Shown: positions 40,280 through 60,833 of the stretch, piece by piece | Position numbering within the stretch: position 1 is the first letter of the stretch | How the letters are laid out: each line of letters starts with the position of its first letter | DNA from: Chitinophagales bacterium | Lineage (GTDB): Bacteria; Bacteroidota; Bacteroidia; Chitinophagales; JADIYW01 | Reading direction: 5' to 3' | Length of the DNA: 64,000 nucleotides | Assembly: GCA_044227665.1 (NCBI GenBank) | Contig: JBGAWK010000001.1 | Span: forward strand, 96,793 to 160,792 | Translations under genes and position numbers: made by a program | Notes under the pieces: generated by a model | Told to the model about the DNA's origin: nothing | Databases searched by the model: none | The model's input: the letters and a program-made list of their open reading frames with translations, nothing else

Positions 40280-40298
40280 CAGATACTGATATAAATTT

Positions 40299-40874: not shown

Positions 40875-40975
40875 ACTCTTGCCACATATTTTTTTGTTCG
40901 TATAAAAAGATGTTAAAAGTATAGTCTAAAATTGTTAAAAAATAGCAATGCTGTAGCGTGTTCGTTTTATCCTTA

Positions 40976-42511
40976 TTATGCTGCCCAGCTATCTCTATCC
41001 AGACTTCTGTATTGAATAGCTTCTGCGAGGTGTTCTATTTTTATGTCTTTACTCTCTGATAAATCTGCAATAGTCCTTGCTACTCGTAATATTCGATCAT
41101 AAGCTCTTGCAGAAAGACCTAGTCTTTTCATTGCAGTATTCAAAAGGGTTATTCCTGCTGAGTCTAAGTTACACACCTCACGAGTAGTCTGTGTTCCCAT
41201 TTGAGCATTTGCATGAATATTCAATGTTGAGAACCTTTCTTGTTGTACCTGTCGTGCCCTCATTACTCGCTCTCTGATTTTTGAACTTTCTTCTGATTTT
41301 TGTGAAGAGGATAATTGGTCGAGTTTTACAGGCGTTACTTCTACATGTAAGTCTATGCGATCTAATAGTGGTCCGGATATTTTGTTGAGGTATTTCTGTA
41401 CCGTTCCCGGCGGACATAGACATTCCTTTTCTGGATGGTTATAGTAGCCACAGGGACAAGGATTCATACTTGCGATAAGCATGAAATTGGCAGGGTAATC
41501 TACAGAACTTTTCGCACGCGAGATAGTTACTTTTCTTTCTTCCATAGGTTGTCGCATAACTTCTAGAACTGTACGCTTAAATTCCGGTAATTCATCCAGA
41601 AAGAGCACGCCATTATGTGCCAAAGATATTTCTCCAGGTTGTGGATGGGTGCCACCACCTACCAGCGCCACATCGCTTACTGTATGATGTGGCGACCGGA
41701 AAGGGCGTTCATACATCAGAGCACTGTCATGTCGCAGACGTCCGGCTACAGAATGTATTTTAGTGGTTTCTAGGGCTTCAGAGAGGGTAAGGGGAGGAAG
41801 TATAGAGGGCAATCGTTTGGCGAGCATGGTTTTACCGGCACCAGGAGGGCCTATCAATATGACATTGTGACCTCCGGCAGCAGCAATCTCCAGTGCTCTC
41901 TTTATATTTTCTTGTCCTTTTACATCGCTGAAATCATTTTCTATGAGTTGGAGGTGGTGATAGAATTCATCTCTAGTGTCCACTACTATAGGCGTAAATG
42001 ATTCCTTCTCTTCCAATAAGGAGACGACATCTTCGAGTGTCTCCAATCCATATACTTCTAGGTCATTTACAATAGCAGCTTCTTTAGCATTCTGCTTGGG
42101 AAGAATAATTCCTTTGAAGCCTTCTTTACGTGCTTGTATGGCAATTGGCAAGGCGCCTTTAATAGGCTGAAGTTTACCATCTAAGGACAACTCTCCCATC
42201 AGGATATACTGATGTAGGTTTTTTCCTTCTATCTGCCCCGAGGCAGCAAGAATACCCATAGCCATAGGCAAATCATAGGAAGAACCTTCTTTACGGATAT
42301 CTGCAGGAGCAAGATTGATGACAATCTTTATGCGGGGCATATTGTAGTCATTATGACGCAATGCCGTCTCTATACGCTGTTGGCTTTCTTGTACTGCTTT
42401 GTCAGGTAGTCCTACAATATAGCAGCCTGTTCCTTGTCCTACATTTACTTCTACTGTGATGGTGGTGGCATTAATGCCATACACCGCACTTCCATAAGTT
42501 TTTACTAGCAT
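40976..42511 (-). CDS. yifB: YifB/ComM-family Mg-chelatase-like AAA+ ATPase
   Basis: A Lon-protease-like N-terminal domain is followed by Walker A GPPGAGKT and VLFLDELPEF, with a C-terminal ChlI-like region. The ORF track extends to a TTG at 42529. ATG 42511 (MLVKTYGSAVYG) is the more likely start. Confidence 0.9.
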   Translation of the reverse strand: MLVKTYGSAVYGINATTITVEVNVGQGTGCYIVGLPDKAVQESQQRIETALRHNDYNMPRIKIVINLAPADIRKEGSSYDLPMAMGILAASGQIEGKNLHQYILMGELSLDGKLQPIKGALPIAIQARKEGFKGIILPKQNAKEAAIVNDLEVYGLETLEDVVSLLEEKESFTPIVVDTRDEFYHHLQLIENDFSDVKGQENIKRALEIAAAGGHNVILIGPPGAGKTMLAKRLPSILPPLTLSEALETTKIHSVAGRLRHDSALMYERPFRSPHHTVSDVALVGGGTHPQPGEISLAHNGVLFLDELPEFKRTVLEVMRQPMEERKVTISRAKSSVDYPANFMLIASMNPCPCGYYNHPEKECLCPPGTVQKYLNKISGPLLDRIDLHVEVTPVKLDQLSSSQKSEESSKIRERVMRARQVQQERFSTLNIHANAQMGTQTTREVCNLDSAGITLLNTAMKRLGLSARAYDRILRVARTIADLSESKDIKIEHLAEAIQYRSLDRDSWAA

Positions 42512-42587
42512 ATCTCTTTTGTATCTCAATTATATAGATACACAAGAGGATCTTTTTCCATAAAATGATGAAAAGAATTATATAATT

Positions 42588-43715
42588 TTAGTAGTTTACT
42601 ATCTGTTCTTCTATAGTATTTGGAATTTCTCTTTCTTCATACTGCTGATTGCGCAATTGGGGAAGATATCCAGCTTCTCTTATTGCGTCTTGCATCGTTT
42701 TATAGGTAAACCTATGGGGTGCTCCCGCCGCAGAAACCACATTTTCTTCTATCATGATAGAGCCAAAGTCATTAGCTCCCCCATGCAGACACAGTTGCCC
42801 GGTAGCCTTGCCTACTGTAAGCCAAGAGGCTTGAATATTTTCAATATTTGGGAGCATTATTCTACTTATTGCCAACATTCGGATATATTCTTCGGCGGTA
42901 ACTTTATTGCGAATGTTGCGTAGTTTCCTCAACAAAGTACCCTCATCCTGAAATGGCCACAGTATGAAGGCAATGAAGCCTTTAGCATCGGTGGGCTTTT
43001 CTGACTGTACTTGTCGAATCCAAGTGAGATGCTCCATGCGTTCTTCAAGGGTTTCTATGTGACCAAACATCATGGTGGCACTTGTAGTAAGATGTAGCTG
43101 GTGTGCCGCACGCATTACGTCCAACCATTCCTGTCCACTACACTTGCCCTTAGCAAGTAGTCTGCGCACTCTATCATTCAATATTTCTGCGCCTGCACCG
43201 GGCAGGGAATCCATGCCTGCCCCCATGAGTGCCGTTAAGACATCGCTATGCGTCATGCCTTCTAATTTGCATATATGTGCTATCTCTGGTGGTCCTAAGG
43301 CATGCAATTTGATAGCGGGAAACAAGGTTTTTATTTGTCGGAAAGTATCTGTATAGTATTTCAACCCAAGATCTGGATGGTGTCCACCCTGTAAAAGTAA
43401 TTGCTCTCCTCCGTATCTTATGGTTTCTTCTATTTTTGTCCTATAAGTTTCTATGTCTGTGATATAAGATTCCTCGTGCCCTGGCTTCCTGTAGAAGTTG
43501 CAAAATTTGCAATTAGCCACACATACATTCGTTGTATTAAGATTCCTGTCTATAATCCAAGTAACCTTCTCGCTATTCTTTTTATGGTGTTTGCGCAACA
43601 TATCCCCTACATACATCAATTCTGCCGTAGGCGCATGATGGAAAAGAAATAATGCCTCTTCTATATTCAGCCATTCAAGAGCCAAGGCTTTACTATATAA
43701 ATCTTTTAATTGCAT
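42588..43715 (-). CDS. Radical SAM enzyme of the MqnC/MqnE/CofH family (futalosine-route menaquinone biosynthesis type)
   Basis: 375 aa. CxxxCxxC cluster motif as CVANCKFCNF within NLNTTNVC..., and a GGxHP motif (LLLQGGHHPDL). I cannot separate MqnC from MqnE by eye. Confidence 0.7.
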   Translation of the reverse strand: MQLKDLYSKALALEWLNIEEALFLFHHAPTAELMYVGDMLRKHHKKNSEKVTWIIDRNLNTTNVCVANCKFCNFYRKPGHEESYITDIETYRTKIEETIRYGGEQLLLQGGHHPDLGLKYYTDTFRQIKTLFPAIKLHALGPPEIAHICKLEGMTHSDVLTALMGAGMDSLPGAGAEILNDRVRRLLAKGKCSGQEWLDVMRAAHQLHLTTSATMMFGHIETLEERMEHLTWIRQVQSEKPTDAKGFIAFILWPFQDEGTLLRKLRNIRNKVTAEEYIRMLAISRIMLPNIENIQASWLTVGKATGQLCLHGGANDFGSIMIEENVVSAAGAPHRFTYKTMQDAIREAGYLPQLRNQQYEEREIPNTIEEQIVNY

Positions 43716-43807
43716 AGGGTAAAGGTAGGATGTTGTGCCTATAGATTTGTAGTTGTACTCAATATTATTTTCTTAAATTAGACTACAGACCAACGGACTT
43801 CGAATGC

Positions 43808-43855
43808 TAAAAATCCCCGAAAATCAAAACTTAAACTGATGATTTTCGGGGATTT
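43808..43855 (-). terminator. Rho-independent terminator of the AAA ATPase gene; also copy 1 of a 39-nt hairpin repeat
   Basis: A 16-bp perfect stem, aaatccccgaaaatca (43811-43826) / tgattttcggggattt (43840-43855), with a 13-nt loop. On the minus strand it is followed by ttttt. Confidence 0.75.
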
Positions 43856-45032
43856 ATTTTGTTATAACAGGTAAAATATTTATTATAAAATATTTAAAAC
43901 CAACAGTATATATGTCTTTCCTCATTGGTATTTCTTTTTCGTCAGCAGGAATTATGATATAATTTTTTTTACATTGCAAATCTTTTATGCTCTCTGTCAT
44001 TCCTTTACTAATATTTGGCGAATGACTCCATTTTATTTCAATACAGCAGATAGGATTAATGCCTTTTACAAGTATGAGGTCTATCTCGCTTCCGTCGTGA
44101 GTTCTATAAAAGAAGGGCTGAATGTTTCTAGGTAATTTTTGGCATATTTGCTCTAAAACATAGGATTCCCAAGAGTATCCTACTATGGGGTGCACTTGGA
44201 GTGTCTTATAGTCGTGTATATCTAGTAGATGATGTAGAATACCCGTGTCGGTGATATAGACTTTGGGACTCTTTACAAGTCTTTTTCCTATATTGATATA
44301 GTATGGCATGAGTTTGCGAACGACAAATGCGCCTTCAATATAGTCTATATATCTGTTTACTGTAGTTGGGCTGATATCCAATCCTTTGGCGAAGGATTGG
44401 GCATTCCATATGCCACCATGATGGTGTGCCAACATTCGCCAAAGTTTGAACATAAGTGTAGAGGAGAAACTTACACCAAATAGTGTATTTAAGTCTCTTT
44501 CTATATATGTGCGCACAAATGCTGCTAACCATGTAGCCGCTGCTGCATCTGTTTTTGATAAAAACGCATCGGGAAATCCTCCTCGCAGCCAGTGTCTGCG
44601 TAGGGCATTGGGCTTCCCAGCTATTTCGCTGTAATGAAAGGGGAAAGCATGAATGTAGGCTATCCTGCCTGCGAGGGATTCGCTTACACCCCGTATAAGG
44701 CTTGGACTGGCAGACCCAAGCAGTAGAAAGCGCCCTGCAATGCGTTTTCTATCTATTATTGAGCGTAATAAGGCAAAAATTTCTGGCATCCGTTGTACTT
44801 CATCAAGGATGAAGAGGCTGTCTTCGTTTTGCGTAAACAATAATTCAGGGTCGCTAAGCTTTCGTATATCGGCGGGACTCTCCAAGTCCAAATAGAAACT
44901 GTCTCTTTTTTGGATGGACTGATAGTGCTTAGCGATGGTAGTCTTGCCACACTGTCGCGGCCCTAGCAGGCACACCACAGGAAATTGCCTGGCATACTGT
45001 ACCAAATCCGATTGTATATGCCGTGATATCAT
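43854..45032 (-). CDS. AAA+ ATPase with a DUF4143-type C-terminal domain
   Basis: Walker A GPRQCGKTT and Walker B LFILDEVQ. The C-terminal half (TDTGILHHLL...) follows the AAA_14 plus DUF4143 architecture. The ORF track extends to 45068, but that extension is made of repeat copy 2. ATG 45032 (MISRHIQSDLV) is the preferred start. Confidence 0.8.
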   Translation of the reverse strand: MISRHIQSDLVQYARQFPVVCLLGPRQCGKTTIAKHYQSIQKRDSFYLDLESPADIRKLSDPELLFTQNEDSLFILDEVQRMPEIFALLRSIIDRKRIAGRFLLLGSASPSLIRGVSESLAGRIAYIHAFPFHYSEIAGKPNALRRHWLRGGFPDAFLSKTDAAAATWLAAFVRTYIERDLNTLFGVSFSSTLMFKLWRMLAHHHGGIWNAQSFAKGLDISPTTVNRYIDYIEGAFVVRKLMPYYINIGKRLVKSPKVYITDTGILHHLLDIHDYKTLQVHPIVGYSWESYVLEQICQKLPRNIQPFFYRTHDGSEIDLILVKGINPICCIEIKWSHSPNISKGMTESIKDLQCKKNYIIIPADEKEIPMRKDIYTVGFKYFIINILPVITK

Positions 45033-45052
45033 ATAACAAATATATAAAAATA

Positions 45053-45095
45053 ATTCCCGAAAATCCAAACTTAAACTGATGATTTTCGGGGAAAA
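45053..45095. repeat. Copy 2 of the 39-nt hairpin repeat (imperfect stem)
   Basis: ttcccgaaaatccaaacttaaactgatgattttcgggga compared with copy 1 tccccgaaaatcaaaacttaaactgatgattttcgggga gives 37 of 39 identical positions in the same orientation. Confidence 0.8.
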
Positions 45096-45211
45096 TATTT
45101 GACTTTACTAGTGTACACGTTTTTTATTTTTAAAATAAATGTATCTATCAAAATAATCTCCAATAAGTATAACTTGTAAATGAATTGGAATAATTGGTGG
45201 ACTTACAATAC

Positions 45212-45233
45212 TTATTAAGTAGCTACTTAATAA
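45212..45233. promoter_or_regulatory. Perfect 22-bp palindrome in the AT-rich spacer; candidate operator
   Basis: ttattaagta gc tacttaataa has 10-bp arms that are exact reverse complements. Confidence 0.3.
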
Positions 45234-45473
45234 TCGAAATAATGCATTAAGTAAGCATAATAACATTCAAAATTTCATCATTAGATTATAAACGTCTCAT
45301 TTTTGTTTCTATTGTTTTAATGATTGTAAAATGAAATTAGTGCACATCTAATTTTACTCATATTGATTTTAAATTATTTATAATCAATGTTTTAAGAATT
45401 AAATATAAACTCATTTGTTAAAAATTTATTTATCCACAATGTTTTGTTTAATTTTATAAACTAAAACATTAGT

Positions 45474-46004
45474 ATGATAAAATATATACAATTTATTTTA
45501 GTCTTTTTTACTATTAATAATATATTTTCTCAAGGAATACTTAGAGATAAGGTTATTAAAGAAATTGCTAAGCAGATTTCTATTCAAGAGATTGATGGAG
45601 GTCAATCCGTTTCATTTAATGAATCTACAAAGATTTTGGCTATTACTTATTATAATCAAAATCTTCTTTCAGACACCATTCGTAAAAAAATATATACTTT
45701 GCTTTGTAGTGAATTGGATTTTTTTAATAGACTTCAAATAAATTCAAAGAAATTACTGATTAATAGTATAATAACTTATGATATGTCTCATCTGGGAAAT
45801 CCTTTGTATAAAGAAGAATATCGAGACTTTGAAAAAGTTGTAATGAATATCTTCATTAATCAATTTTCGGATTATATAAAGTACGACAATGATTCACGAA
45901 GCCTCACCTTTGTGAATGATGAAGTTAAAGTATCGTTTTTGGGTAAGGATTGGGCCTCAATAATTGAGGATTTGTCTGACAAATTATTGAATACAACAAA
46001 ATAA
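45474..46004 (+). CDS. Small secreted hypothetical protein, very AT-rich
   Basis: 176 aa with signal-like N-terminus MIKYIQFILVFFTINNIFSQ. It ends 6 nt before the start of the giant gene. No family recognised. Confidence 0.55.
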   Translation: MIKYIQFILVFFTINNIFSQGILRDKVIKEIAKQISIQEIDGGQSVSFNESTKILAITYYNQNLLSDTIRKKIYTLLCSELDFFNRLQINSKKLLINSIITYDMSHLGNPLYKEEYRDFEKVVMNIFINQFSDYIKYDNDSRSLTFVNDEVKVSFLGKDWASIIEDLSDKLLNTTK

Positions 46005-46010
46005 ATTCCT

Positions 46011-48302
46011 ATGAAAATATTCTACAAATTTATATTATTTGTATGCTTATATTGTGTAAGCACACAAAATAGTTCTGCTCAAAAAAATATAAAATTAAAC
46101 ATATCACAATTACGTTTATCTGGATTGAGTACTGGATGTGATGGTATTGGTGCAGAAGAACCGAGATGGTATTTTACTAATGATAAATCTGGAACAGATT
46201 GGTGTGATGAAGAAAGTTCATCCAGTTCTGGCAATCAAACTTGGGCTAAAAACAATGATATTTTTAATGAAAGCTATATATGTCCTTCGGATATACCAGC
46301 CACCATTAGTGTTCGGATGAGGGCATGCGAGAATGATGGGGCAAGTTGTTGGACTTTATCTTCGTGTGATGGAGGTCAACACGACCATTCAGAGTCCATT
46401 ACCACTACTGCTACTAATGGTACGTATACTAATACCAATGGTTGTGGTTCTTATTTTTATACAGATAACCATGGTGGCTGTGGCGATGCTGATTATGGGT
46501 ATACTATTCAGATGATAGTTTCAGGCTCTTGGCAAACCACTAAGAACCAAAATGCTAGCGGTAATATTACTAATACAACTTGTCTAACAGCCATAGATAT
46601 CACTAGTGGTATAGGAGCTATGCCTACTAATGATGGCTGGAGAGGTCCCATACGTGGACATATCAAACGGTGTGGCGATATCTACTATAAATTCAACCTT
46701 ACCACTAATGTGTCTTATTTTGAAATAGATATGTTTAATGGTGATGGTGATGTAGATGTTTACTACATGAATACGGATGGAACTTGCGGCTGTGCAGTAT
46801 CTAATGATGCAGGAATATTTGATTATGATTTCAAAGAAAACAGCCCTAAATTGGGATGGTATGTAATTAAATTGAGAAATGGTAGTGACTACGTTGATAT
46901 AGATTTCCGTACAGGTGGTGGTGTAACCCGCCCTGGTAATGACAACATATCTTGCGCTACTCTTATTGGTACTGGTGGTACTATAGATGTTTGCGAATCA
47001 GGCTCTTTGACGAGCAATAACATTAATGCTACTGATGAGGACGTGTGTGGTGTAGATGAACCGCAAGAAAATGATAATAGAACTGTATGGTACAAATTTG
47101 TAGCTGGAAGTACTATAGGTACTAATTTAAAGATAAAGGTTACGAATAATGGTGGCGATAATATGACACCAGATATTGCACTATTTAAGCAAGTGACAAC
47201 ACCAGGTCTCTGTCCCACACTATATGGATATAATACAGGATTACAATATCTTGCGGATAATAGTGGCACATATTTAGTGGATAATGATGCGGAGGTAAAT
47301 ATTACCTCTTGTTCAGGAGCATATACCGCAGGTGCCACCTATTTTTTGCAGATAGATGATGAAGGTGGGACAGCGGGTATTGGATATTATGATGGTGATT
47401 TTAAGTTGGAATGGTGGGATAATGGAAAGATAGAGGGACAAAATTATATTTGTAGTGCTGCAGATATGACGGCAGCACCACCCGCCACCTCAGGTGCTTG
47501 TTCCTATGGCAGTAATGCCGATGGTGATGGTATTCTGGAAGTTTCGGAAACGATATCTAGGCTAAACCAGTCCAACTATTGTGCCAATACAGAAGTTGGT
47601 GAGCCTGAATTAGGATCTGTAGTATGTGTAGATCAAATTGCAAGCACAGTATGGTATAAATTTACTACCGGCACTATTGCTGCTCCTATTACCGTAAGGG
47701 TATGGGATGATGGAGATGCAGGTGGTTCCGATGATATAGATCCCTATTTTTCTGTATATAAATCCTGCGTGGGATGTACTTTTGGTACTAACCTCGTTCA
47801 GGTAGGCGAAGCAGGAGGTACGGATGTGCTTGGTGGCGCCGAAGCTGATGACTACTCCATCACCTTCAATCCTGCGCCTAGTTCCACCTATTATATACAA
47901 GTAGGGGGTTGGGTAGATGGGGCTCTTTGTGGCAACAGCGAAAAGGGCGATTTCAATGTCTCAGCATCTATGGCGGCTACAGCGCTAAAGGGTGACTACA
48001 TCTGCGATGCACATATTGCAGGCAGCACAGGATGGTCGGAGACAGGAGGCACGAATAACGATTTACTGGATTTAGGTGAAACAATGCAAACCACAAGCGT
48101 ATTCACCAACAAAGGATTCTATTCGGTAGAAGATGGCTGTGGGCTAGATGAGCCAGATAATAGCGATGGCGATGAAACAGTGTGGTTTAAATTTAAAACC
48201 TCAGGCACAGTGGGTTCAGAGATAGCCGTAAATGTAGATGCTGTAAATGGTTCTGGAGAAGGGGCTGCTTGCCCAGGAGGAGTTGGTACCACCTTTGCTT
48301 AG
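46011..48302 (+). CDS. Giant T9SS cargo protein, segment A (signal peptide, N-terminal Cys-rich region, modules 1-3 and first half of module 4); ends at an in-frame TAG
   Basis: 763 codons. Signal peptide MKIFYKFILFVCLYCVSTQNSSAQ. Repeated motifs NDxxCxA / CxxxxxEP / VW[YF]KF. Same reading frame as the next ORF. Confidence 0.85.
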   Translation: MKIFYKFILFVCLYCVSTQNSSAQKNIKLNISQLRLSGLSTGCDGIGAEEPRWYFTNDKSGTDWCDEESSSSSGNQTWAKNNDIFNESYICPSDIPATISVRMRACENDGASCWTLSSCDGGQHDHSESITTTATNGTYTNTNGCGSYFYTDNHGGCGDADYGYTIQMIVSGSWQTTKNQNASGNITNTTCLTAIDITSGIGAMPTNDGWRGPIRGHIKRCGDIYYKFNLTTNVSYFEIDMFNGDGDVDVYYMNTDGTCGCAVSNDAGIFDYDFKENSPKLGWYVIKLRNGSDYVDIDFRTGGGVTRPGNDNISCATLIGTGGTIDVCESGSLTSNNINATDEDVCGVDEPQENDNRTVWYKFVAGSTIGTNLKIKVTNNGGDNMTPDIALFKQVTTPGLCPTLYGYNTGLQYLADNSGTYLVDNDAEVNITSCSGAYTAGATYFLQIDDEGGTAGIGYYDGDFKLEWWDNGKIEGQNYICSAADMTAAPPATSGACSYGSNADGDGILEVSETISRLNQSNYCANTEVGEPELGSVVCVDQIASTVWYKFTTGTIAAPITVRVWDDGDAGGSDDIDPYFSVYKSCVGCTFGTNLVQVGEAGGTDVLGGAEADDYSITFNPAPSSTYYIQVGGWVDGALCGNSEKGDFNVSASMAATALKGDYICDAHIAGSTGWSETGGTNNDLLDLGETMQTTSVFTNKGFYSVEDGCGLDEPDNSDGDETVWFKFKTSGTVGSEIAVNVDAVNGSGEGAACPGGVGTTFA

Positions 48303-51300
48303 ATGAAAGTTTGGGAATGGACAGGAACAGGAACAGGTCCTGCTTGTAATGATGCTACACGCTTTGATCCTTTGAAATTGGTAGATATCGGCACGCCTGA
48401 TTTAGTGGACCAAAGCAAGGAATATATAGAGTGTCCGAAAGCAAATACTTGGTATTTTGCACAGTGTGAACTAGGGTTTGGGTCAACTTGTGATAGAGCG
48501 AATTTTAATGCTACAATCACCGACAATGGCATTCCACAAGCACCTAATGACCGTATCTGTAATGCTACCGTATTGAGTACACCTACCTATACGAATCCAC
48601 AATCATTGGTGGGAACATATACGACACATACACTTATCAACCAAAATAATTTCTGTGCTACAAATACAGGGGAGCCTACACCGAGTTGTTTTGGCACTAA
48701 TGATCAGTCGGTATGGTATAAACTACCTGCCGCCGCTGCTCCAGGGGCTAGCGATATATCTAACCCAGGTAGGAAGGTAGTTATCGTCAACGCTTACAGT
48801 CAACATCCGGCAGGTGTCGAAGATGAGATAAACCTCCAACTGGCATTATATACCAATAGTAATATGGCTTCTTGCCCTACTAACCCTACAACTGGATTTA
48901 CACTTACTAGTGATATTCAAGGAAATAATTGTGCTTATGTAAGTCCATTAAGTATAGATCCGGATCAAGTTCTTCAATTGAGTGAATATCTTACTGCAGC
49001 TTGTCTTACACCAGAGACTGATTATTATTTGATGGTGGATGGTGAAGTTCCATTTTATGATGTCCTAACTCAGTATCTGAAAGAGGGCTGGTTTGAGTTT
49101 GATGCTTACTATCCCCGTGAAGTTGGGGACATACCTTGCAATGCTGTGCCTTTCAAATTATTTGGAAATAGTAATGGATTTAATACGGGTTATGACAATG
49201 CTGCCGGAGCATTTGGAACAGGCGATGCATCAAAGACGGGTTTGACAGACAATCTTTACAATAATTCAAATCTTTGTACTACTTATACGCCGGGTACCGG
49301 TGCTAATCAGGAACCGGGAACTACATTTACAACTGGTGATGGCAATGATAATCCGGGATGGGTATATTTCTATGCCCCACCGAGTGGCTCTGTACGTATT
49401 ACGGCTACTGCCGACCCTCAAGATATCATGAAAGATGGTACTTTTGATAATATTGATTTACAATTGGCTATATATCAAGAAACCACACCTGGTAATTGCT
49501 CGATAATACAACCGCCACAGTCTCCGGTGTCTTCTATCGTGAGTTATAATGTCTTAGATGGCTATGGCGAAGTTATGTATGTAAACTGCCTCACGCCCGG
49601 AAGAAAATATTATTTGGAAATAGATGGCTCCGCATCTCCTATCACACAAACAAGAGGTATTTTTGACTTAAAAATTGAAGACTACCAACCTAATGCTTAT
49701 GCGCCTAATGATGAGATGTGTAATGCGATTCCTTTTAGTGATTCTTATATAGCGACAAATACGTGGAATAGAATCAATTATAAAGACACTTTATATATTG
49801 CAGATACCAAAAACTGGTGTGCCGACAACCTCAACGAACCCGGAAGACCTGCTTTAGGCGGTTATAATGAAACAGGGGTGTGGTATAAATTTATAGCACC
49901 CCCCTCTGGAAAGATACATATTCTTGCAGAGAATACAGACTACGGCACATTGAGCAAGCCCTCAGGAGACCCCAACCATATAGACCTATCATTGGCAATC
50001 TATAAACTGAATTCTGGCTACTCCTGTACACAATATGCTATTCCTGAAGCTACTACACTGATTGTTCAGGATTATCAGAATCCACTTGTTACCTCTGGTG
50101 TTGCAATTGCGGGAACATCTGTAGAAGATGAAGAGATGGAAGTTTCATGTCTTATTCCGGGACAAGAATATTACCTTCTAGTATCAGGTAAAAAGTCAGC
50201 AGGCATAGGCTCCGACTGGGATTATGGTAGATTCAATCTTACTATAACTTCCGACCCTCGCAACCCTGCTTCCTGGAATGGAGCATATAATACGGTGAGT
50301 GGTAATCAATACTTACCAGCTACGATTAATCCAAGTATAGATACCGTATGTGGTGCTGCTAATTTGGGTACAATGCCTGCGGGTACAACCTGGTATCAAC
50401 CGTTTACAGACAGAAAAGTACCGAATAATTGTAGCTCCAATTTCTATATGTCTCCGACATTTAACAATTTCTGTGCTACCGCTACCAGCGACCCTACACC
50501 GGGGTATCAGCAGAGTGTTGTAAATGCATTTGGTAGCAATCACCAACCGGTATGGTTTAAGTTTACTACACCAGCAACAGGAGCTTATGACCCATCTATT
50601 ATTAGTGTAGAAATAGAGGCTATATCTGGAGATTGTTCTACTGCGATATTGGATGATTGGTTTGACAATGGATGTTCTCCTAGTGATGAAGTGTATCAAG
50701 ATTGTATAGACTTAGGCGTTTCTTTGTGGATGGCTAGTGACGGAACATGCTCAGGACCTTTATATGAAATGGGCAGTGATTATGATCCGGGCTTTTATGA
50801 TGAGAATGCCACCATACATTGCTTAGATCCTAATACTACCTATTATATCATGGTGGATGGATCGGCACTAAACAAAGAAGGGAACTTTAATTTAAGGGTG
50901 CGTCAGGTAAATCCTGATCCGCGCCCTTCAAATAATTTTATTTGCAATGCTAAAAAATTAACTACCGGTGCGGCAAGTTCTGCTGCTTCTTTCTGGGGCG
51001 GTGGTGCAGCATTTACTTATGAAAAAGACACAAATATTTGTGCAGATACTAGATTAAATGTGAGTAGTGCTGCGGGAACAGAACCTATTCCCTCAGGATG
51101 GGATGTGGTTTCACCTCCTTCAGATGCTGCTGATATGACGCATACAGTATGGTATAGCTTTATGACACCTACTGCTGCGGGAGATTATGCTGTACATATA
51201 GATGTAAATAGTGATCTTCCTTGGCCTTTTGGCGATTTGGTGAATCCAAAAATTGCCGTTTGGGAGTCTCAAGATGGTACTTGTAGTTATTCGCATCCTA

Positions 51301-54003
51301 ATGGTACCAATATGGTAGAAATGGCAAGCGAGTATGATCCTTTGGCCTTTTGGGGTGAATCTATAGATGTATATTGTTTGAAGCCAAATACATTATATTA
51401 TGTACAGGTGGGTGGAACACTCAATGTATATGGTCAGGAACAAGGATTCTTTGATATTGTGATTAATGACATTCCTCCAATTACTATACCCGCAAATGAC
51501 AATGTATGTAGTGCATTCAATGTAGGCACTACTACCAATGCAGGCTCTGTGACTATCTCCTCTACGCCGGGCAATAAGATAGGAAATGCATCTTCTGGTG
51601 CCAATAATTATCATAATTATTGCACTGATTTAGAGGCTGGAGAACCACAACCAGATGCTTTCACCGCAGATAATACGGTATGGTTTAAGTTCATGACACC
51701 TAATGTGGCGGGTAAGAGATATGATGTTACTGTCAATGCAAATTCTGATCCTGCTCCTGACCACAATGATGGCATAAATCTACAATTAGCGTTGTATGAG
51801 TCCTCAGATGGCACTTGTGATTTTGCGAAATTTACGGAGTTAGGGTCTGATTTTGATGCATTACTTTGGGACGAAACGCTGTCTGTTACTTGTTTGAAAC
51901 CTAATATGACCTATTATGTACAAGTAGATGGCACCAAAGGTTTCTTGGAACTGTTCAGGGCACAGGGTTTTGGGTACTTTGGCTTAGAAGTAGTGACCGA
52001 TGCCGTATATAATGCACCATCTAATGATGATGCATGTAATGCCACCAATTTAGGCACAGTGCCTATTGCAGGCAATATCAATAATGGAACATGGTACTAC
52101 AACAACTGTGCTACTACCCAAGTGGGAGAGCCTATAGATATACCTACAGATATCTCAAGCTATGATGTAGATAAATCAGTATGGTTTAGATTTACGGCGG
52201 CAAGGGATGCGGATTATACGATACAATTAGAATCAGATGCCTTATTAGGTACGGATCCTATAGATTTACAAGTAGCTGTTTTTAGAGCCACAAATGGATG
52301 CAGTGACTTCAGTGGATTTGTACAAGAAGCAGCCGATTATGATGCTGGATTTTTTGATGAAGATCTTACATTGCCTTGTGTAAAATCAGGACAAGAGTAT
52401 TATGTACAAGTAGATGGTTCTTCACTGAATATGGAAGGAAGATTCAAGATTCGCATCTATGATGATGGTGCTGCGACATCAGGCCCTGCCAATGATAATA
52501 TTTGTAGTCTTACTACGGCTGGGGCGGCGTTTGCTACCATAGCATTAACCGGGGCAACACAGGGAATTACTAATCAAAATAATATCTGTGCTACTACCGA
52601 GGTCGGTGAACCTAATGCACCTGCGGATGTACAAAAATCTGTATGGTACAGATTCCAAGCTTCAGCGTCAGGACGCTTACGCCTTACTTTACATGATGCA
52701 GATGGAGCATTTAGAGGGTTAGATCCTGAAATGTATCTCTACGAAGTAGGGCCTACATGGAATTGTAGTTTTGGTTCTTGGACGACTCCGGGTGTAGAGA
52801 TGGCTAGCGCATACAATCCTATTCCTGATGTTCCTATTATTTGTCCTAACTGCGGTGACGAAGAAATAGAATATGAGTGCTTCATTCCGGGATGGTGGTA
52901 TGTCGTTCAAGTGGATGGTACAACTGTAGGGGGTGCACAAGGTAAATTTGACCTTACTATAGAAGATTTATTATATCCTTATACAATACCTTCCGGTAAT
53001 CAACCTGCAAATAATGATATTGCGAATGCTGTAACTGTAACGGTACAAGATGAGCAATGTGTGGTAACTGATGGTGAAGAAATTCAGGGTAGTGGCTCGT
53101 GGCAGACCTATTTGCTCCATAACGGATCTTTGTGGCGATACATGGTATAAATTTACTGTGCCGGCAATAACGTGTGCTCCAGGCTCGCCTGCGGGAAGTA
53201 TGCCCGTATATACACCAATAATGGTTCAAGGTAGCGCACGTTATGATGCTAACCTTGTGGATGATGAAAGTAAACTCCACGTGATAGCTTATAAAGGAAC
53301 ACCTGGAAGTCTTACAGCAATAGGCTGTGGAACAGCAGGGAAACCTAATTTGACTACGGGAGATCAATTCTTTAACTTTGAAATTAGTGAAGCTCAAGGT
53401 ACTGTAATATATCTGCAAGTGTTTGGGGAACAGGCACTAGACTGGGATAAAGACTTCGATTTATGTGTGAGTGAGCGCAAAGGATTCGATGAGTGTATTC
53501 ATGCAGCACAAGCTCCTCCTATGCAATATGGCGTAGAGTATTGTTATAATATTAAAGGAGCAACATCAGAACCAGCAAGTAATGGCTATGCAGAATCCTG
53601 TCCTTTGACAGGTATTCCGGGTATTCCTGATCCGGATTCTGATGCACCTACAGAAAACTCTATCTACTTTAAATTTACTACGGACAATAGTTGTGCTGAT
53701 TATAGACTGACTTTTAAATATTACTTTACGACATATTCAGCATTAAATAACAAAGGAATTTCTTACAGTATTTACAAAGACAATACTCCTTGTGATGGAG
53801 CGCCTATAGGCTCCGGCACATTGGATTGTCAGTCTTTCTATAATACTTCTATTTCTAGTAATACATACGTGATTACTTATCAAAATAATATGTATCTCAC
53901 AGTTGCAAGTGGAATTGATACAAGTGCCACATATTATATTCAGATAGACGGTCCCGGACAAACTTTTGGGAACTTAGACGGCACAATTAAGATTGAGCAA
54001 GTT
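46560..54003 (+). repeat. Array of about 14 tandem protein-level repeats (about 118-220 aa each), PPC-like cysteine-bearing modules
   Basis: Module boundaries estimated from the recurring P.ND..C.A start motif. In nt: 46560, 46914, 47424, 47976, 48537, 49113, 49686, 50256, 50913, 51471, 52002, 52470, 52971, 53479, ending 54003. The repeats have diverged at the DNA level. Confidence 0.75.
48303..53150 (+). CDS. Giant T9SS cargo protein, segment B (second half of module 4 through first half of module 13)
   Basis: 1615 codons. Eight complete modules of 156-219 aa, each with P.ND..C.A, N.C[AT][TD]...EP, VW[YF][KR]F, [IL][DN]L[QS][LV]A[LIV][YF], C[LF].P...YY[ILV].[VI][DGS]G and G.F.L.[IV]. No signal peptide of its own. 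Confidence 0.85.
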   Translation: MKVWEWTGTGTGPACNDATRFDPLKLVDIGTPDLVDQSKEYIECPKANTWYFAQCELGFGSTCDRANFNATITDNGIPQAPNDRICNATVLSTPTYTNPQSLVGTYTTHTLINQNNFCATNTGEPTPSCFGTNDQSVWYKLPAAAAPGASDISNPGRKVVIVNAYSQHPAGVEDEINLQLALYTNSNMASCPTNPTTGFTLTSDIQGNNCAYVSPLSIDPDQVLQLSEYLTAACLTPETDYYLMVDGEVPFYDVLTQYLKEGWFEFDAYYPREVGDIPCNAVPFKLFGNSNGFNTGYDNAAGAFGTGDASKTGLTDNLYNNSNLCTTYTPGTGANQEPGTTFTTGDGNDNPGWVYFYAPPSGSVRITATADPQDIMKDGTFDNIDLQLAIYQETTPGNCSIIQPPQSPVSSIVSYNVLDGYGEVMYVNCLTPGRKYYLEIDGSASPITQTRGIFDLKIEDYQPNAYAPNDEMCNAIPFSDSYIATNTWNRINYKDTLYIADTKNWCADNLNEPGRPALGGYNETGVWYKFIAPPSGKIHILAENTDYGTLSKPSGDPNHIDLSLAIYKLNSGYSCTQYAIPEATTLIVQDYQNPLVTSGVAIAGTSVEDEEMEVSCLIPGQEYYLLVSGKKSAGIGSDWDYGRFNLTITSDPRNPASWNGAYNTVSGNQYLPATINPSIDTVCGAANLGTMPAGTTWYQPFTDRKVPNNCSSNFYMSPTFNNFCATATSDPTPGYQQSVVNAFGSNHQPVWFKFTTPATGAYDPSIISVEIEAISGDCSTAILDDWFDNGCSPSDEVYQDCIDLGVSLWMASDGTCSGPLYEMGSDYDPGFYDENATIHCLDPNTTYYIMVDGSALNKEGNFNLRVRQVNPDPRPSNNFICNAKKLTTGAASSAASFWGGGAAFTYEKDTNICADTRLNVSSAAGTEPIPSGWDVVSPPSDAADMTHTVWYSFMTPTAAGDYAVHIDVNSDLPWPFGDLVNPKIAVWESQDGTCSYSHPNGTNMVEMASEYDPLAFWGESIDVYCLKPNTLYYVQVGGTLNVYGQEQGFFDIVINDIPPITIPANDNVCSAFNVGTTTNAGSVTISSTPGNKIGNASSGANNYHNYCTDLEAGEPQPDAFTADNTVWFKFMTPNVAGKRYDVTVNANSDPAPDHNDGINLQLALYESSDGTCDFAKFTELGSDFDALLWDETLSVTCLKPNMTYYVQVDGTKGFLELFRAQGFGYFGLEVVTDAVYNAPSNDDACNATNLGTVPIAGNINNGTWYYNNCATTQVGEPIDIPTDISSYDVDKSVWFRFTAARDADYTIQLESDALLGTDPIDLQVAVFRATNGCSDFSGFVQEAADYDAGFFDEDLTLPCVKSGQEYYVQVDGSSLNMEGRFKIRIYDDGAATSGPANDNICSLTTAGAAFATIALTGATQGITNQNNICATTEVGEPNAPADVQKSVWYRFQASASGRLRLTLHDADGAFRGLDPEMYLYEVGPTWNCSFGSWTTPGVEMASAYNPIPDVPIICPNCGDEEIEYECFIPGWWYVVQVDGTTVGGAQGKFDLTIEDLLYPYTIPSGNQPANNDIANAVTVTVQDEQCVVTDGEEIQGSGSWQTYLLHNGSLWRYMV

Positions 54004-55194
54004 CCTGTATGCTTGCCAATAGTCATAGACAGTATGCCGGTAGTATCCATGACACAGTATTATACTTGTGGAGATGGGTGGCGTCATTACTATCATACTG
54101 TTGGCTCTCAGAGAAAATATAAGTTTTCGCTTTATGACAATGGCAATACTTCACTACAAGGTATAGCTAAAATCTATTACACTACAGATCATTATACAGA
54201 GTCTATTGGTTGCGAATATGCATCTCATGTAATGAGAAGATACTGGGATTTTGAAATTACTTCAGGAACTATTGATCCAGCGAAACCTGTGAAAATTAGA
54301 TTCTATTATTTACCCATAGAAAAACAAGAAATAATAGATACCATGATGAGTTTCCAAGCAAATGGCTGTCTTGGTACTGCGGAAGGATTCGAATGGTTTA
54401 AGTCTTGTAATGGTATTGCCTTCGATTATGCTGCGCATACGAATCCATACTATGTGTACGCATGTTATGGTAGTGGCTTAGCCACAGGGGCTGCTTTCTC
54501 CCTTACTACAGTAGATGATGTATCATGTAATAATGTAACGTATGTGGAATATCAAGGACTGACTGGTTTCTCAGGAGGTACAGGCGCCACGGGTAATGGC
54601 TATGCCCCTACGCCACTACCTATAGAACTAATATCTTTCACAGGCAGCTATAACGAAGCCAACCATACGAATGATTTACAATGGGCTACAGCTTCAGAAT
54701 TCAATAATGATTATTTTGTGGTAGAAAAATCTTTGGATGGTACAATATTCGTTCCAATAGGCACAGTGGATGGTGCAGGAAATAGTAATACAGTATTAAA
54801 TTATACTTTGATAGATCCTAATCCTGTCATAGGCAATAACTACTATAGATTAGTACAATATGACTTTGATGGTACAAGCACAACTTCGCCAATAATTAAT
54901 ATCAAAGTTGCAGATCCTGTCCCTTATCAGGCTACGTATATAGATAGAATATATCCGAACCCTACTAGTGGCAAGTTAAACATTGACATTATCGTATCTG
55001 TAGAACAACTTTCTCTCAATATGAGCGTTACAAATGTAATAGGTCAGCACATGAGAGATGAAGTGTTGAACTTACAGAAGGGCAAGAACACCATAGTGTT
55101 GGATGCTTCAGAATATGCCCAAGGGGTATATTTGATTAACTTAGTAAACAAACTTAAAGATATAAATCTCAAGAGTAAGTTTGTGAAACAATAA
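53071..55194 (+). CDS. Giant T9SS cargo protein, segment C (+1 frame: second half of module 13, module 14, two further domains, T9SS type-A C-terminal sorting domain)
   Basis: 707 codons. CGDTWYKFTV and SIYFKFTT module motifs. A pre-CTD domain LISFTGSYNEANHTNDLQWATASEFNNDYFVVEKSLDG...YYRLVQYDFDG. CTD IYPNPTSGKLNIDI...GVYLINLV...KFVKQ. No signal peptide of its own. Confidence 0.85.
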   Translation: MVKKFRVVARGRPICSITDLCGDTWYKFTVPAITCAPGSPAGSMPVYTPIMVQGSARYDANLVDDESKLHVIAYKGTPGSLTAIGCGTAGKPNLTTGDQFFNFEISEAQGTVIYLQVFGEQALDWDKDFDLCVSERKGFDECIHAAQAPPMQYGVEYCYNIKGATSEPASNGYAESCPLTGIPGIPDPDSDAPTENSIYFKFTTDNSCADYRLTFKYYFTTYSALNNKGISYSIYKDNTPCDGAPIGSGTLDCQSFYNTSISSNTYVITYQNNMYLTVASGIDTSATYYIQIDGPGQTFGNLDGTIKIEQVPVCLPIVIDSMPVVSMTQYYTCGDGWRHYYHTVGSQRKYKFSLYDNGNTSLQGIAKIYYTTDHYTESIGCEYASHVMRRYWDFEITSGTIDPAKPVKIRFYYLPIEKQEIIDTMMSFQANGCLGTAEGFEWFKSCNGIAFDYAAHTNPYYVYACYGSGLATGAAFSLTTVDDVSCNNVTYVEYQGLTGFSGGTGATGNGYAPTPLPIELISFTGSYNEANHTNDLQWATASEFNNDYFVVEKSLDGTIFVPIGTVDGAGNSNTVLNYTLIDPNPVIGNNYYRLVQYDFDGTSTTSPIINIKVADPVPYQATYIDRIYPNPTSGKLNIDIIVSVEQLSLNMSVTNVIGQHMRDEVLNLQKGKNTIVLDASEYAQGVYLINLVNKLKDINLKSKFVKQ

Positions 55195-55337: not shown

Positions 55338-56546
55338 ATGTATGTTACCTCAGATATTGAAAATCTGCAAAAAGTAATCGTACACAGGCCTGATATGGGC
55401 ATAGAGTACATTACGCCGGAAATAGCAGAACAATTATTGTATGACGATATCGTATTTCTACCTCGAATCATTGAAGAACACGACAATTTTACAGATAGTC
55501 TGAAAAAATTCATTGGCAAGGATAATGTAATAGAAATCCAGCAACTTCTTACAGACATTATCAAAGATGACGATGCCAAAAATGATATTCTTGAGAGAAT
55601 AGCTTCTTATCACAACCTCAATCTGTCTAGGCGTGAGAAATTGAGAACATTAGAATATGAGCAACTATCAGAGACCTTGATATCTGGGCTACATCCCAAT
55701 ACAAAAGAAGTATTGTTGCCGCCACTTCCAAATTTGGTATTCACTAGAGATCTCGCCTGTGTCATCCAAGATATGATAGTAGTCTGCAAAGCACATAAGC
55801 AAGCAAGGCAAAGAGAAAACATCTTATTTTCGTATATTGTAAAGTACCATCCCTTATTTGTGGGGTTCTCTGATAAAGTCTTAGATTTTACCCGAGAAGA
55901 CTATTTTAGCAACACCGCTATATCTATTGAAGGGGGCGATATAATGGTTTTGGGAAATAAGCATGTTTTGATAGGTAAGAGTGAGCGCACCACGCTGGCG
56001 GCCATAGAGTTGCTAAAGAACTTTCTCTTTGACAGAAATATTTTAGATACACTTACAGTTGTAGAATTACCGGAGGCTCGATATTGTATGCATTTAGATA
56101 CCGTCTTTACATTAATAGATAGGAATACAGCGGTAGGCTATGCGCCATTAGTTTTTGAGGAAAACGAAGAACTAGGCGTAGTAACTTACATAAGGGATAA
56201 ACACAAACCCCTATTTTATCCTACCCTAAAGCATCTATTACATGATTATAATCCTGCAATGACACTCATCTCTTGTGGAAATGGCATACACCCATTCGAT
56301 AAAAGGGAACAGTGGACAGATGGGTGTAATTTGGTTGCAGTAAGACCGGGAGTAGCTTTTGCTTACGAGAGGAATATTTATACGCTAAAAGCATTGAAAG
56401 GTGCAGGATACGTATCTCTCAGTCCCCGAAAAATGGATACCCTACTACAAGAAAACCTTAAAGCTATTATTACTATATCTTCTTCAGAATTATCACGAGC
56501 CCGCGGAGGACCCCATTGCATGACCATGCCATTGTGGCGCGCCTAA
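55338..56546 (+). CDS. arcA: Arginine deiminase family protein
   Basis: 402 aa. Guanidino-group-modifying-enzyme fold motifs, including the C-terminal catalytic Cys context RGGPHCMTMPLWR. Confidence 0.7.
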   Translation: MYVTSDIENLQKVIVHRPDMGIEYITPEIAEQLLYDDIVFLPRIIEEHDNFTDSLKKFIGKDNVIEIQQLLTDIIKDDDAKNDILERIASYHNLNLSRREKLRTLEYEQLSETLISGLHPNTKEVLLPPLPNLVFTRDLACVIQDMIVVCKAHKQARQRENILFSYIVKYHPLFVGFSDKVLDFTREDYFSNTAISIEGGDIMVLGNKHVLIGKSERTTLAAIELLKNFLFDRNILDTLTVVELPEARYCMHLDTVFTLIDRNTAVGYAPLVFEENEELGVVTYIRDKHKPLFYPTLKHLLHDYNPAMTLISCGNGIHPFDKREQWTDGCNLVAVRPGVAFAYERNIYTLKALKGAGYVSLSPRKMDTLLQENLKAIITISSSELSRARGGPHCMTMPLWRA

Positions 56547-56593
56547 GCACCTATTATACAGGCAGAAATTTATGACAATACTTTTTCTTTATT

Positions 56594-57622
56594 TTAGGAC
56601 TGAGGCTCAAATGCAGGGATAGCCTTACAGATATGCTCTATGTCGGCAGGGCTGATGTCCAAATGTGTAACCATACGCATTAATCCTTCACCCATATCAA
56701 TGATCCATATATTGTTCTTTTCAAGATGTTCCGTAAATTGCTTTGCGAGCCGTGGGCTCTTCATGGCAAAGATGATAATATTAGTTTCAACGGGCAATAA
56801 GTGTTTTATATACTTGCAATCTTTGAGTGTATTTGCAATAATTTGAGCATGATGATGGTCAATATGAAGGCGGACAATATTATTGTCCAATGCATAAACA
56901 CAAGCCTGAGCGAGATATCCGGATTGGCGCATTCCGCCGCCAAAGGCTTTCCTGTATTTTCGAGCCTTTTTTATATATGAGGATGTTCCTAGTAATGCAG
57001 AGCCTACTGGTGCTCCCAAGCCCTTGGAAAAGCAGACAGTAATGCTATCACAATGCTTGCCTATAAATTTTTCGTCATACCCCTCATGGATAATAGCATT
57101 AAATATCCTAGCACCATCTATATGTAAAGGAATTCCTCGTTTTCTACAGAAAGTATAAATGTTGAAAATTTCATCTTGTGTATAGCAGATGCCACCAGCT
57201 CTATTTACAGTGTTCTCAATAGTTACAAGACCAGTAGTTGGCAACCAGTCGTGATGCTGGCGGATATGATTGGTGATGTCCTTTACATTGAGTTTGTTAT
57301 CCTTACCATGTATGATAGCGGCACATATCCCAGAAAACATTGCATATCCCCCATTCTCATATTGCAGTATATGGGAATTGTATTCAGCAATGACCTCCTG
57401 CATGGGCTGGGTATGTGTTTTTATTGCCACTTGGTTGCTCATAGTTCCGGAAGGCATAAACAAAGCTGCCTCCATGCCGAAGCGTTCTGCCACTTTCATC
57501 TCTAAGGCAAGAACGGTAGGGTCTTCACCAAAAACATCATCTCCTACTTCTGCCAAAAACATAGCCGCCAACATAGCTTTGTCCGGTTTTGTAACCGTAT
57601 CACTTCGTAAATCTATAATCAT
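56594..57622 (-). CDS. ltaE: Low-specificity L-threonine aldolase (PLP-dependent)
   Basis: 342 aa. DLRSDTVTKP N-terminus, GDDVFGEDPT, SGTMSNQ, and a PLP lysine region CFSKGLGAPVGS. Confidence 0.85.
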   Translation of the reverse strand: MIIDLRSDTVTKPDKAMLAAMFLAEVGDDVFGEDPTVLALEMKVAERFGMEAALFMPSGTMSNQVAIKTHTQPMQEVIAEYNSHILQYENGGYAMFSGICAAIIHGKDNKLNVKDITNHIRQHHDWLPTTGLVTIENTVNRAGGICYTQDEIFNIYTFCRKRGIPLHIDGARIFNAIIHEGYDEKFIGKHCDSITVCFSKGLGAPVGSALLGTSSYIKKARKYRKAFGGGMRQSGYLAQACVYALDNNIVRLHIDHHHAQIIANTLKDCKYIKHLLPVETNIIIFAMKSPRLAKQFTEHLEKNNIWIIDMGEGLMRMVTHLDISPADIEHICKAIPAFEPQS

Positions 57623-58263
57623 CAGAAACCTATTTGCATTCTAAACAAATCTAGTGCATTAGGGAATACAATAATTGTAAATAATACGCCAAAAATCGCA
57701 CCAAAAAAGTGTGCATCATGGCCTATGTTGTCATTACCTTGCTTCGAAAGATATGCAGAGAAAGCAAGGTATATGGGGCCAAAGATATAAGCCTTAACAG
57801 GAATAAAATAAAAATATATCTCACTGCGAGGACTCAGAATAATACTGCTGAATATCACAGCAGAAACAGCCCCGGATGCACCTAAGGCATTGTAGTAAGG
57901 GTTGTCTTTATGCTTCGCATAAGAATACAGGTGACTGAAGCACATGCCTAATAGATAAAGCAAAAGATACATTATCATGCCCTTGGTGCCTAAGGCTATA
58001 GAAAACATTTGCTCTACATATCTTCCAAATGAATAGAATGCCAGCATATTGAAACCCAAGTGTGCATAATCGGCGTGAATAAATCCGGCACTCCAAAATC
58101 TATACCACTCTCCTGTACTTTTTATTCGATACGGATTAAACATAAAACGATGTTGTAGAGTACCATTATTAAATGCTAATAGGGATATTACTACCGTTAC
58201 TACCAATATTGCCACTGTAACCATAAGATTTTTTACCAAATTTAGCATATTGCATAAGTTCAT
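57622..58263 (-). CDS. Rhomboid-family intramembrane serine protease
   Basis: 213 aa and polytopic. Catalytic GASGAV motif, a downstream His (HDAHFFGAIFG), and a WR-like loop (EWYRFWSAGFIH). Confidence 0.8.
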   Translation of the reverse strand: MNLCNMLNLVKNLMVTVAILVVTVVISLLAFNNGTLQHRFMFNPYRIKSTGEWYRFWSAGFIHADYAHLGFNMLAFYSFGRYVEQMFSIALGTKGMIMYLLLYLLGMCFSHLYSYAKHKDNPYYNALGASGAVSAVIFSSIILSPRSEIYFYFIPVKAYIFGPIYLAFSAYLSKQGNDNIGHDAHFFGAIFGVLFTIIVFPNALDLFRMQIGF

Positions 58264-58299
58264 AATAATTATTTACAAAAAAGAATATGTCAATAACAG

Positions 58300-58307
58300 T
58301 ATTTTTG
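58300..58307 (+). promoter_or_regulatory. -7 promoter box TAttTTTG
   Basis: tatttttg lies 14 nt upstream of the ATG at 58321. Confidence 0.35.
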
Positions 58308-58320
58308 AAAAAATTTACAA

Positions 58321-59052
58321 ATGGATTTTAGTGTCTTTACACAGCCGGCAGCATATATTAGTTTAATCTCCCTTACCTTTATGGAAATAGTATTGGGTAT
58401 AGATAATATTATTTTTGTAGCGATCAATACCCAGCGGGCAGCACCACATCAGCAAGAAAAAGCACGACGGTGGGGACTGTTTATGGCACTACTCATAAGG
58501 ATAGTGTTATTATTTTTTATCCAATTCATTATAGCCTCTACACAACCCTTGTTTTACCTGCCTATAGATTTTGAAGGCAATGCGATAAGTCTAAAAGACA
58601 TCGTCTTAGTAATGGGAGGACTATTTTTGCTGTATAAAAGTACTATAGAGATAGACCATAAGATTAATGAAGACGATCATGCTGAAACCGGAAAGAAAAC
58701 GCAGATGTCCTTCACACAGGTAGTAATTCAGATTGCACTCATAAATTTAGTGTTTTCTATAGATTCTATCATTACGGCCATAGGTCTCACACAGAGCATA
58801 GTTATCATGTTTATCTCTATTATATTGTCTATGATTATTATGGTGATGGTATCTAAGTCTATTAGCGATTTCATCGAAAGACATCCTACCATAAAAATAT
58901 TGGCACTATCATTCTTGTTAATGATAGGTCTATTATTAGTGGCAGAAGCATTCGATGTGCATGTGCCTAAAGGGTATGTCTATTTTGCTATGGCATTTTC
59001 TTTGGGCGTAGAATTTTTGAATATAAAATATAGAACAAAAAAAGGTATATAA
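58321..59052 (+). CDS. TerC-family integral membrane protein
   Basis: 243 aa. EIVLGIDNIIFVAI and VFSIDSIITAIGLT are the paired TerC DN/DS motifs. Confidence 0.85.
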   Translation: MDFSVFTQPAAYISLISLTFMEIVLGIDNIIFVAINTQRAAPHQQEKARRWGLFMALLIRIVLLFFIQFIIASTQPLFYLPIDFEGNAISLKDIVLVMGGLFLLYKSTIEIDHKINEDDHAETGKKTQMSFTQVVIQIALINLVFSIDSIITAIGLTQSIVIMFISIILSMIIMVMVSKSISDFIERHPTIKILALSFLLMIGLLLVAEAFDVHVPKGYVYFAMAFSLGVEFLNIKYRTKKGI

Positions 59053-60636: not shown

Positions 60637-60707
60637 GCAACATAAGGGCAAAATTAATTTTTTATAAATACAAAACATATTTTTTGAAAATCCCAAACTT
60701 GTTATTT

Positions 60708-60761
60708 ATGTTTGTTACTATGAAGGCAAAATATTCTTGTTGGTGTAATATTATTATATAG
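60708..60761 (+). promoter_or_regulatory. Candidate 17-codon leader ORF (MFVTMKAKYSCWCNIII) upstream of sulfite reductase
   Basis: ATG at 60708 and TAG at 60759-60761. Cys-Trp-Cys codons sit at 60738-60746. The stop abuts a segment that can pair with the 5' arm of the downstream terminator. Speculative. Confidence 0.25.
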
Positions 60762-60782
60762 GGCAAGGCATATTACTTCTAT

Positions 60783-60816: not shown

Positions 60817-60833
60817 AAAACAAAAATTAGTAT

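Follow-up and report, generated by a model that had tools for sequence, protein, structure and literature searches.

The 64,000-nucleotide window analysed here, a part of contig JBGAWK010000001.1 of a Chitinophagales bacterium, carries at 46011-55194 three consecutive open reading frames (ORFs) that together resemble one giant gene for a protein exported by the type IX secretion system (T9SS). The gene-caller records on the contig list three ORFs of 763, 1,615 and 678 aa. A sequence-only reading of the window had proposed instead a single gene of about 3,060 codons, broken by an in-frame stop codon and by a change of reading frame, each within a repeat module. Its ORF coordinates, the frame shared by ORF1 and ORF2 and the lone TAG followed by ATG were all reproduced exactly. 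The same is true for ORF3 in the +1 frame, which opens past the TAA at 53065-53067, frame 0 being closed by the TAA at 53148-53150. Read across both breaks, the conceptual window protein has about 3,060-3,080 codons (about 3,077 aa). The features of the locus are listed in Table 1.

Alignment with orthologous loci, a check that the sequence-only reading had itself recommended, revealed single ORFs. In the contigs L019 (JGI, 249 kb) and L020, one gene of 3,425 aa with a Por_Secre_tail domain is located directly upstream of the arginine deiminase gene also present in the window, and the seven downstream genes are those of the window. The conceptual window protein aligned to L019 in a single high-scoring segment pair covering aa 307-3060 with 92.8 % amino acid identity (94.4 % for fragment 2 and 95.1 % for fragment 3). 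This alignment and the intact syntenic orthologues bear out one gene broken twice. Four further contigs, L022-L025, presented uninterrupted ORFs of 1,274-1,931 codons running to the contig edge, to which the window protein is 88.6-89.2 % identical. L015 (Logan SRR14932693) has the same ATG and continues for 1,214 codons without a stop up to the contig end. The gene is thus uninterrupted at the site of the TAG in L015, L019 and L020 and at the site of the frame change in L019, L020 and L022-L025, and the modules that were said to be split by the two breaks, as indeed they are in the window, are continuous in the orthologues. The syntenic loci, from metagenomic genomes of two related lineages, were reached by a search with the downstream arginine deiminase gene, L015 by exact look-ups of small neighbour genes. 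An initial search with protein sequence spanning the second junction had returned only the distant locus L001; the intact 3,425-aa orthologue P0159, with 92.8 % amino acid identity to the window gene, was missing from it because it shares a 90 % cluster whose representative is ORF2 of the window. A scan of genome contigs with ORF3 yielded only distant matches, to the C-terminal domain. The N-terminal length varies: about 306 aa precede the conserved part in the window protein and about 657 aa in P0159, roughly two extra modules, so the N-terminal module number varies between orthologues.

The distant locus L001, from the NCBI metagenome-assembled genome GCA_016717665.1, has 57-73 % amino acid identity to the window gene. 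Its copy (L001:1-8404) is cut by the contig start, and at least six frame changes break it up into nine called ORFs. At least one of these changes coincides with a T-run (GATTTTGTGG), which is found about 30 nt further downstream than the position aligned to the second break of the window, and a compensating pair is located near the position of the window's TAG. The frame changes look like long-read indel errors rather than biology and make L001 a poor witness. L001 was rejected as a relative with the same three ORFs, its breaks being at different and more numerous positions. Related genomes sharing the three ORFs of the window, which would speak for a genuine three-gene locus, were not seen; the relatives spanning the breaks read through.

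At the first break, the aligned codons are GC(A/G) TGG ATG AAA GT. in L015, L019 and L020, GCT TGG TTA AAA GTA in L001, and TAG ATG in the window. On the protein level, TVFA-W-MKVWEW in L015 faces TTFA-stop-MKVWEW in the window. All four related loci have a tryptophan codon at this position, and the TAG is a single transition, G to A, in a conserved codon. The methionine behind it is conserved in the three close loci. The ATG at 48303 is a pre-existing internal codon and no start, its adjacency to the stop coincidental. The sequence-only reading had pointed to the same TAGATG between hflX (10577-11755, minus strand) and a thioesterase gene (9887-10576) and had considered a coupling of termination and reinitiation in this genome. 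The junction at 10574-10579 is real and joins two full-length, unrelated genes; support for coupling beyond ordinary operon packing was not obtained. The TerC and S41 peptidase genes abut at 59052/59053 (TAA ATG, 59050-59055), and the genes for a biotin-lipoyl protein and an O-methyltransferase overlap by one base at 37399-37403. Close packing of stops and starts is the norm in this genome, and TAGATG is an ordinary operon junction.

At the second break, the frame change had been placed within 53068-53147. The DNA alignment refines this to an exact point: exactly 50 nt are missing from the window between 53111 and 53112, without any flanking direct repeat. L019, L022 and L025 all hold AATTATGGCAAGCCTACGAGAGA..GG between ...ACNTAT and (T/A)TG(C/T)TC. 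In the orthologous proteins, the region reads ...EEIQGSGTWQTY-NYGKPTRDLNNGLG(GG/SA)G-CSI(T/A)DLCGDTWYKF..., with WQTY before the gap. The lost 17 codons, NYGKPTRDLNNGLGGGG, are kept in each of the six syntenic orthologues; a long loop is likewise retained in the distant L001. In the window, the junction reads ...CAG ACC TAT|T TGC TCC...; frame 0 runs on for 12 out-of-frame codons to its TAA, and homology resumes at the TGC at 53113 in the +1 frame (CSITDLCGDTWYKF...). Neither a homopolymer nor a slippery heptamer was found in the junction sequence at 53111/53112. The absence of such sites from 53068-53147, already remarked on from the sequence alone, holds and is explained by the deletion, which produces the frame offset.

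Table 1 Features of the giant-gene locus in the window
Feature	Position	Strand	Description	Basis
ORF1	46011-48302	+	763 aa, terminates at TAG	ORF map and translation
ORF2	48303-53150	+	1,615 aa, same frame as ORF1, first codon is the ATG right after TAG	
ORF3	53071-55194	+	707 aa, +1 frame	
Fragment 1	46011..48299	+	codons 1-763; Sec-type signal peptide (about 46011-46082) and first four repeat modules	
Nonsense codon TAG, in frame	48300..48302	+	ancestral codon TGG (Trp), G-to-A at 48301	
Fragment 2	48303..53111	+	codons 765-2367, frame of fragment 1; modules 4b-13a	
Deletion junction	53111..53112	+	50 nt (17 codons minus one base) absent relative to orthologues	
Out-of-frame tail of frame 0	53112..53150	+	LLHNGSLWRYMV, then TAA; no homologous counterpart in the orthologue alignment	three-frame translation, orthologue alignment
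Fragment 3	53113..55194	+	+1 frame; last modules, unique C-terminal region, stop TAA 55192-55194	
T9SS type A C-terminal sorting domain (Por_Secre_tail)	54949..55191	+		PF18962, TIGR04183
Representative repeat module	52011..52478	+	codons 2001-2156	module alignment, AlphaFold2 model
Separate 176-aa ORF	45474..46004	+	N-terminus resembling a signal peptide; 6 nt ahead of the giant gene, same frame	

Expression of the pieces as one protein by recoding, through read-through of the TAG or termination-reinitiation at TAGATG followed by a programmed +1 frameshift in 53068-53147, had been among the three options of the sequence-only reading. In its favour are an ATG directly after the TAG, a frame offset of +1 and pieces that are perfectly preserved and free of extra lesions. 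The orthologues oppose it: neither signal is conserved, a tryptophan codon taking the place of the stop and the ATG simply encoding a methionine within the protein. The frame change is the loss of 50 nt coding for conserved residues, at a site that is not prone to shifting; as these 17 residues are physically absent, a programmed shift is ruled out. A reinitiated ORF2 or ORF3 product would also be devoid of a signal peptide. A suppressor tRNA was not found in the 64-kb window, which contains no tRNA at all, and TAG ends 14 of the 49 long reading frames (at least 150 codons). An alternative genetic code or a suppressor was rejected for these two reasons. Altogether, we regard recoding as very improbable.

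The export signals are divided between the pieces, as had been claimed. The Por_Secre_tail is confined to ORF3 (PF18962, 41.7 bits, 1.5e-10, cut-off 27; TIGR04183, 28.9 bits, cut-off 23), and an N-terminus resembling a signal peptide, judged by eye from the translation, is present in ORF1 only (MKIFYKFILFVCLYCVSTQNSSAQ). The N-terminus of ORF2 (MKVWEWTGTGTGPACN...) has no hydrophobic signal sequence. No single polypeptide of the window combines signal peptide and C-terminal domain (CTD), whereas P0159 has both, an N-terminal signal peptide (MRYFYFSPKVVLYILAIFAINNAIAQ...) and the C-terminal T9SS sorting domain. By this architecture, the ancestral gene was a member of the T9SS cargo with type A CTD, and the window copy is a broken member. 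A real locus of three separate and functional genes, as the gene caller's three ORFs on the window contig would have it, is refuted by the comparison with the orthologues: both boundaries cut through individual structural modules, which seven related loci show without interruption, ORF2 and ORF3 lack a signal peptide, ORF1 and ORF2 lack the C-terminal domain, and the orthologue P0159 is one protein.

The ratio of nonsynonymous to synonymous divergence (dN/dS, Nei-Gojobori) against L019 was 0.057, 0.035 and 0.031 for fragments 1, 2 and 3. The intact orthologues L019 and L022 gave 0.029 between them, and the window pieces are indistinguishable from such constraint. Further stops or frame shifts were not found in the 9.2-kb locus. 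Strong purifying selection acted on the giant gene until very recent times; the low ratios together with the lack of other lesions imply that an inactivation must be very recent. The absent relaxation points to a very young lesion or to an artefact. The latter alternative, a gene intact in the organism with one or both lesions arising from assembly or consensus building or representing a minority strain variant, appears unlikely to us, but it keeps an appreciable share of the probability. Unrelaxed dN/dS values are what an intact gene would show, neither lesion was reproduced in any independent assembly, and the frame changes of L001, the only other NCBI relative, demonstrate that such assemblies can be error-ridden. 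Several observations on the window contig weigh in the same direction and thus against real lesions. If the contig belongs to a metagenome-assembled genome, which is our guess, it may display a minority or chimeric allele. No contig other than that of the window itself (NCBI, 161 kb) was found to encode the exact ORF1, ORF2 and ORF3 products. The Logan contigs that are identical to the window reach neither lesion: two contigs of SRR28480391 have 100 % DNA identity to it, L016 over 45352-47543, where it ends, and L013 from its start at 53863 onward. A 27-nt sequence across the deletion junction was without exact match in JGI metagenomes; an alignment-based scan used low-specificity peptides and gave no confirmation, although L019 and L023 are JGI contigs. 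The silence of the JGI scans reflects a limitation of the tool and is no evidence of absence.

The nature of the lesions speaks against an artefact. Neither a G-to-A substitution nor a 50-nt deletion that is clean and without flanking repeat is typical of sequencing or polishing errors. Some 15 flanking genes for which usable comparators exist are intact, being full length against Pfam profiles or matching the lengths in L014 and L019, and show no frame-breaking lesion; the window assembly is thus not generally indel-prone. Long near-identical internal DNA repeats are missing from the giant gene, the longest being about 40 nt at 60-80 % identity. A misassembly by repeat collapse was rejected on this ground, as the DNA of the modules has diverged too far. 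That both lesions lie in a single gene also fits relaxed selection after a first hit better than random error.

Of the three options offered by the sequence-only reading (inactivated gene, sequencing or assembly error, recoding), the recently inactivated gene is favoured. Intact orthologues occupy the syntenic position, and the disruptions are derived and specific to the window copy, as is characteristic of a pseudogene. We consider it probable that 46011-55194 is a recently inactivated pseudogene of a single giant gene for a T9SS-secreted, adhesin-like protein, with both lesions real in the organism. One lesion would have been the transition that turned the conserved tryptophan codon into TAG at 48300-48302. 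The other, independent lesion would be the 50-bp deletion at 53111/53112 that took 17 codons of a module loop and shifted the frame by +1. ORF1 could then yield at most a Sec-exported fragment of 763 aa which, lacking the CTD, would stay in the periplasm or be degraded and would not be secreted by the T9SS. Products of ORF2 and ORF3, if made, would be non-functional for want of a signal peptide. Through both breaks, the T9SS-secreted protein would be lost. The appropriate annotation for the three ORFs is one pseudogene, or a single gene should reads prove the lesions artefactual, rather than three hypothetical proteins or a candidate for recoding. The loss of a giant surface protein in one lineage is a common phenomenon and may reflect strain-level variation in surface adhesion.

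Some observations hint at recombination at the giant gene. On either side of a divergent tract, L015 hardly differs from the window (45282-48100 and 49400-49654, 0-2 differences per 200 nt). The tract itself, of about 1.3 kb (L015:3230-4530, window about 48150-49450), has only about 76 % identity and spans the site of the TAG, with TGG in its place. The window version of this tract is 84 % identical to L019, like its flanks, the L015 version 78 %, so the window carries the native version. The divergent tract of L015 may be an import by recombination or the mark of a chimeric contig. Against L019, the giant gene has 93 % amino acid identity at a synonymous p-distance (pS) of 0.50-0.58, while seven adjacent housekeeping-type genes (55338-63675) have 79-89 % amino acid identity and a pS of 0.66-0.83, with saturated dS. 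The lower synonymous divergence of the giant gene suggests a more recent exchange between lineages or an unusual synonymous constraint. L014 (ENA contig k141_992249; L014:1-11521 corresponds to window 35525-46994) matches the window at 96.5-99 % identity in the 176-aa ORF and the 5' part of the giant gene, a value that drops to only 75-85 % in the 10 kb of syntenic genes upstream of them. Taken together, the L015 tract, the low pS and the L014 pattern may hint at recombinational exchange of the locus between lineages; the alternative is chimeric metagenome contigs. A more far-reaching reading would be that the lesions are real and that the giant gene recombines frequently within and between species, broken alleles being transient and repairable by imported tracts. 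We consider this improbable. If true, loss and regain of the giant adhesin would be an on/off mechanism on the population level, e.g., under pressure by phages or grazers.

In five other assemblies, L015 among them, a protein identical to that of the upstream 176-aa ORF immediately precedes the giant gene. It has no match in Pfam or NCBIfam. It travels with the giant gene, possibly as a dedicated partner. Scans for promoters and terminators gave no more hits at the locus than expected by chance.

In the body of the giant gene, about 14 modules of 155-200 aa follow one another in tandem, with a mutual amino acid identity of 25-37 %. The module alignment shows an N-terminal extension of about 45 residues and the shared motifs P.ND..C.A, N.CA...GEP, VWYKF, an internal cysteine, YY.QVDG and G.F.L.I. 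Searches of the modules against Pfam (E ≤ 0.01) and NCBIfam gave no match, including none to PF04151, and a search of the PDB with a module profile gave nothing significant, the best match being an unrelated protein (E 0.075). The AlphaFold2 model of the module at 52011-52478 is a β-sandwich (predicted local distance difference test, pLDDT, 86.6; predicted TM-score, pTM, 0.86). Its best Foldseek matches in the PDB were 4hpk/1nqd, the collagen-binding domain of ColG, the C-terminal claudin-binding domain of Clostridium perfringens enterotoxin and 5sv5, a PPC domain (E 7e-5 to 7e-4), and further the C-terminal jelly roll of Tk-SP. These matches had target-normalised TM-scores of 0.45-0.68 and a probability of 1.00 at a sequence identity of 9-19 %. 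Predicted fold and architecture suggest an adhesin-like T9SS cargo. The orthologues constitute an uncharacterised family of giant T9SS cargo of 3,100-3,400 aa, built from PPC- or collagen-binding-like modules without Pfam or NCBIfam coverage, found in several environmental Bacteroidota and under strong purifying selection (dN/dS about 0.03).

In comparison with known systems, the giant gene represents a conventional, if uncharacterised, class of giant T9SS cargo; what happened to it is an ordinary inactivation of very recent date or, with lower probability, an artefact. Bacteroidota T9SS cargo with type A CTD includes large multi-domain adhesins and gingipain-type proteins. The giant gene shares with them the Por_Secre_tail, a long repetitive body of predicted β-sandwiches and, in the intact orthologue, the Sec signal peptide together with the CTD; it differs in that the export signals of the window copy are split across fragments and its modules are without a Pfam or NCBIfam match. 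SprB, the giant gliding adhesin of Flavobacterium, has a type B CTD, in contrast to type A in the window gene. The predicted fold of the modules resembles PPC (PF04151), the ColG collagen-binding domain and the C-terminal domain of the C. perfringens enterotoxin. The low identity, the missing PF04151 match, the N-terminal extension and the modules' own motifs (the cysteine, NxCA..GEP, VWYKF, YY.QVDG) set them apart from PPC and ColG. With programmed +1 frameshifting of the prfB/RF2 type and with stop read-through, the locus has only the geometry in common, an in-frame stop and a +1 offset; a conserved shift site, a slippery or rare-codon context and conservation of the stop are lacking. The closest likeness is to bacterial pseudogenes flagged by annotators as 'internal stop; frameshifted'. 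They are the same in kind, a derived nonsense mutation and a frame-shifting deletion relative to intact syntenic orthologues, and the window gene is set apart from them by its size and by the absence of a measurable relaxation of dN/dS.

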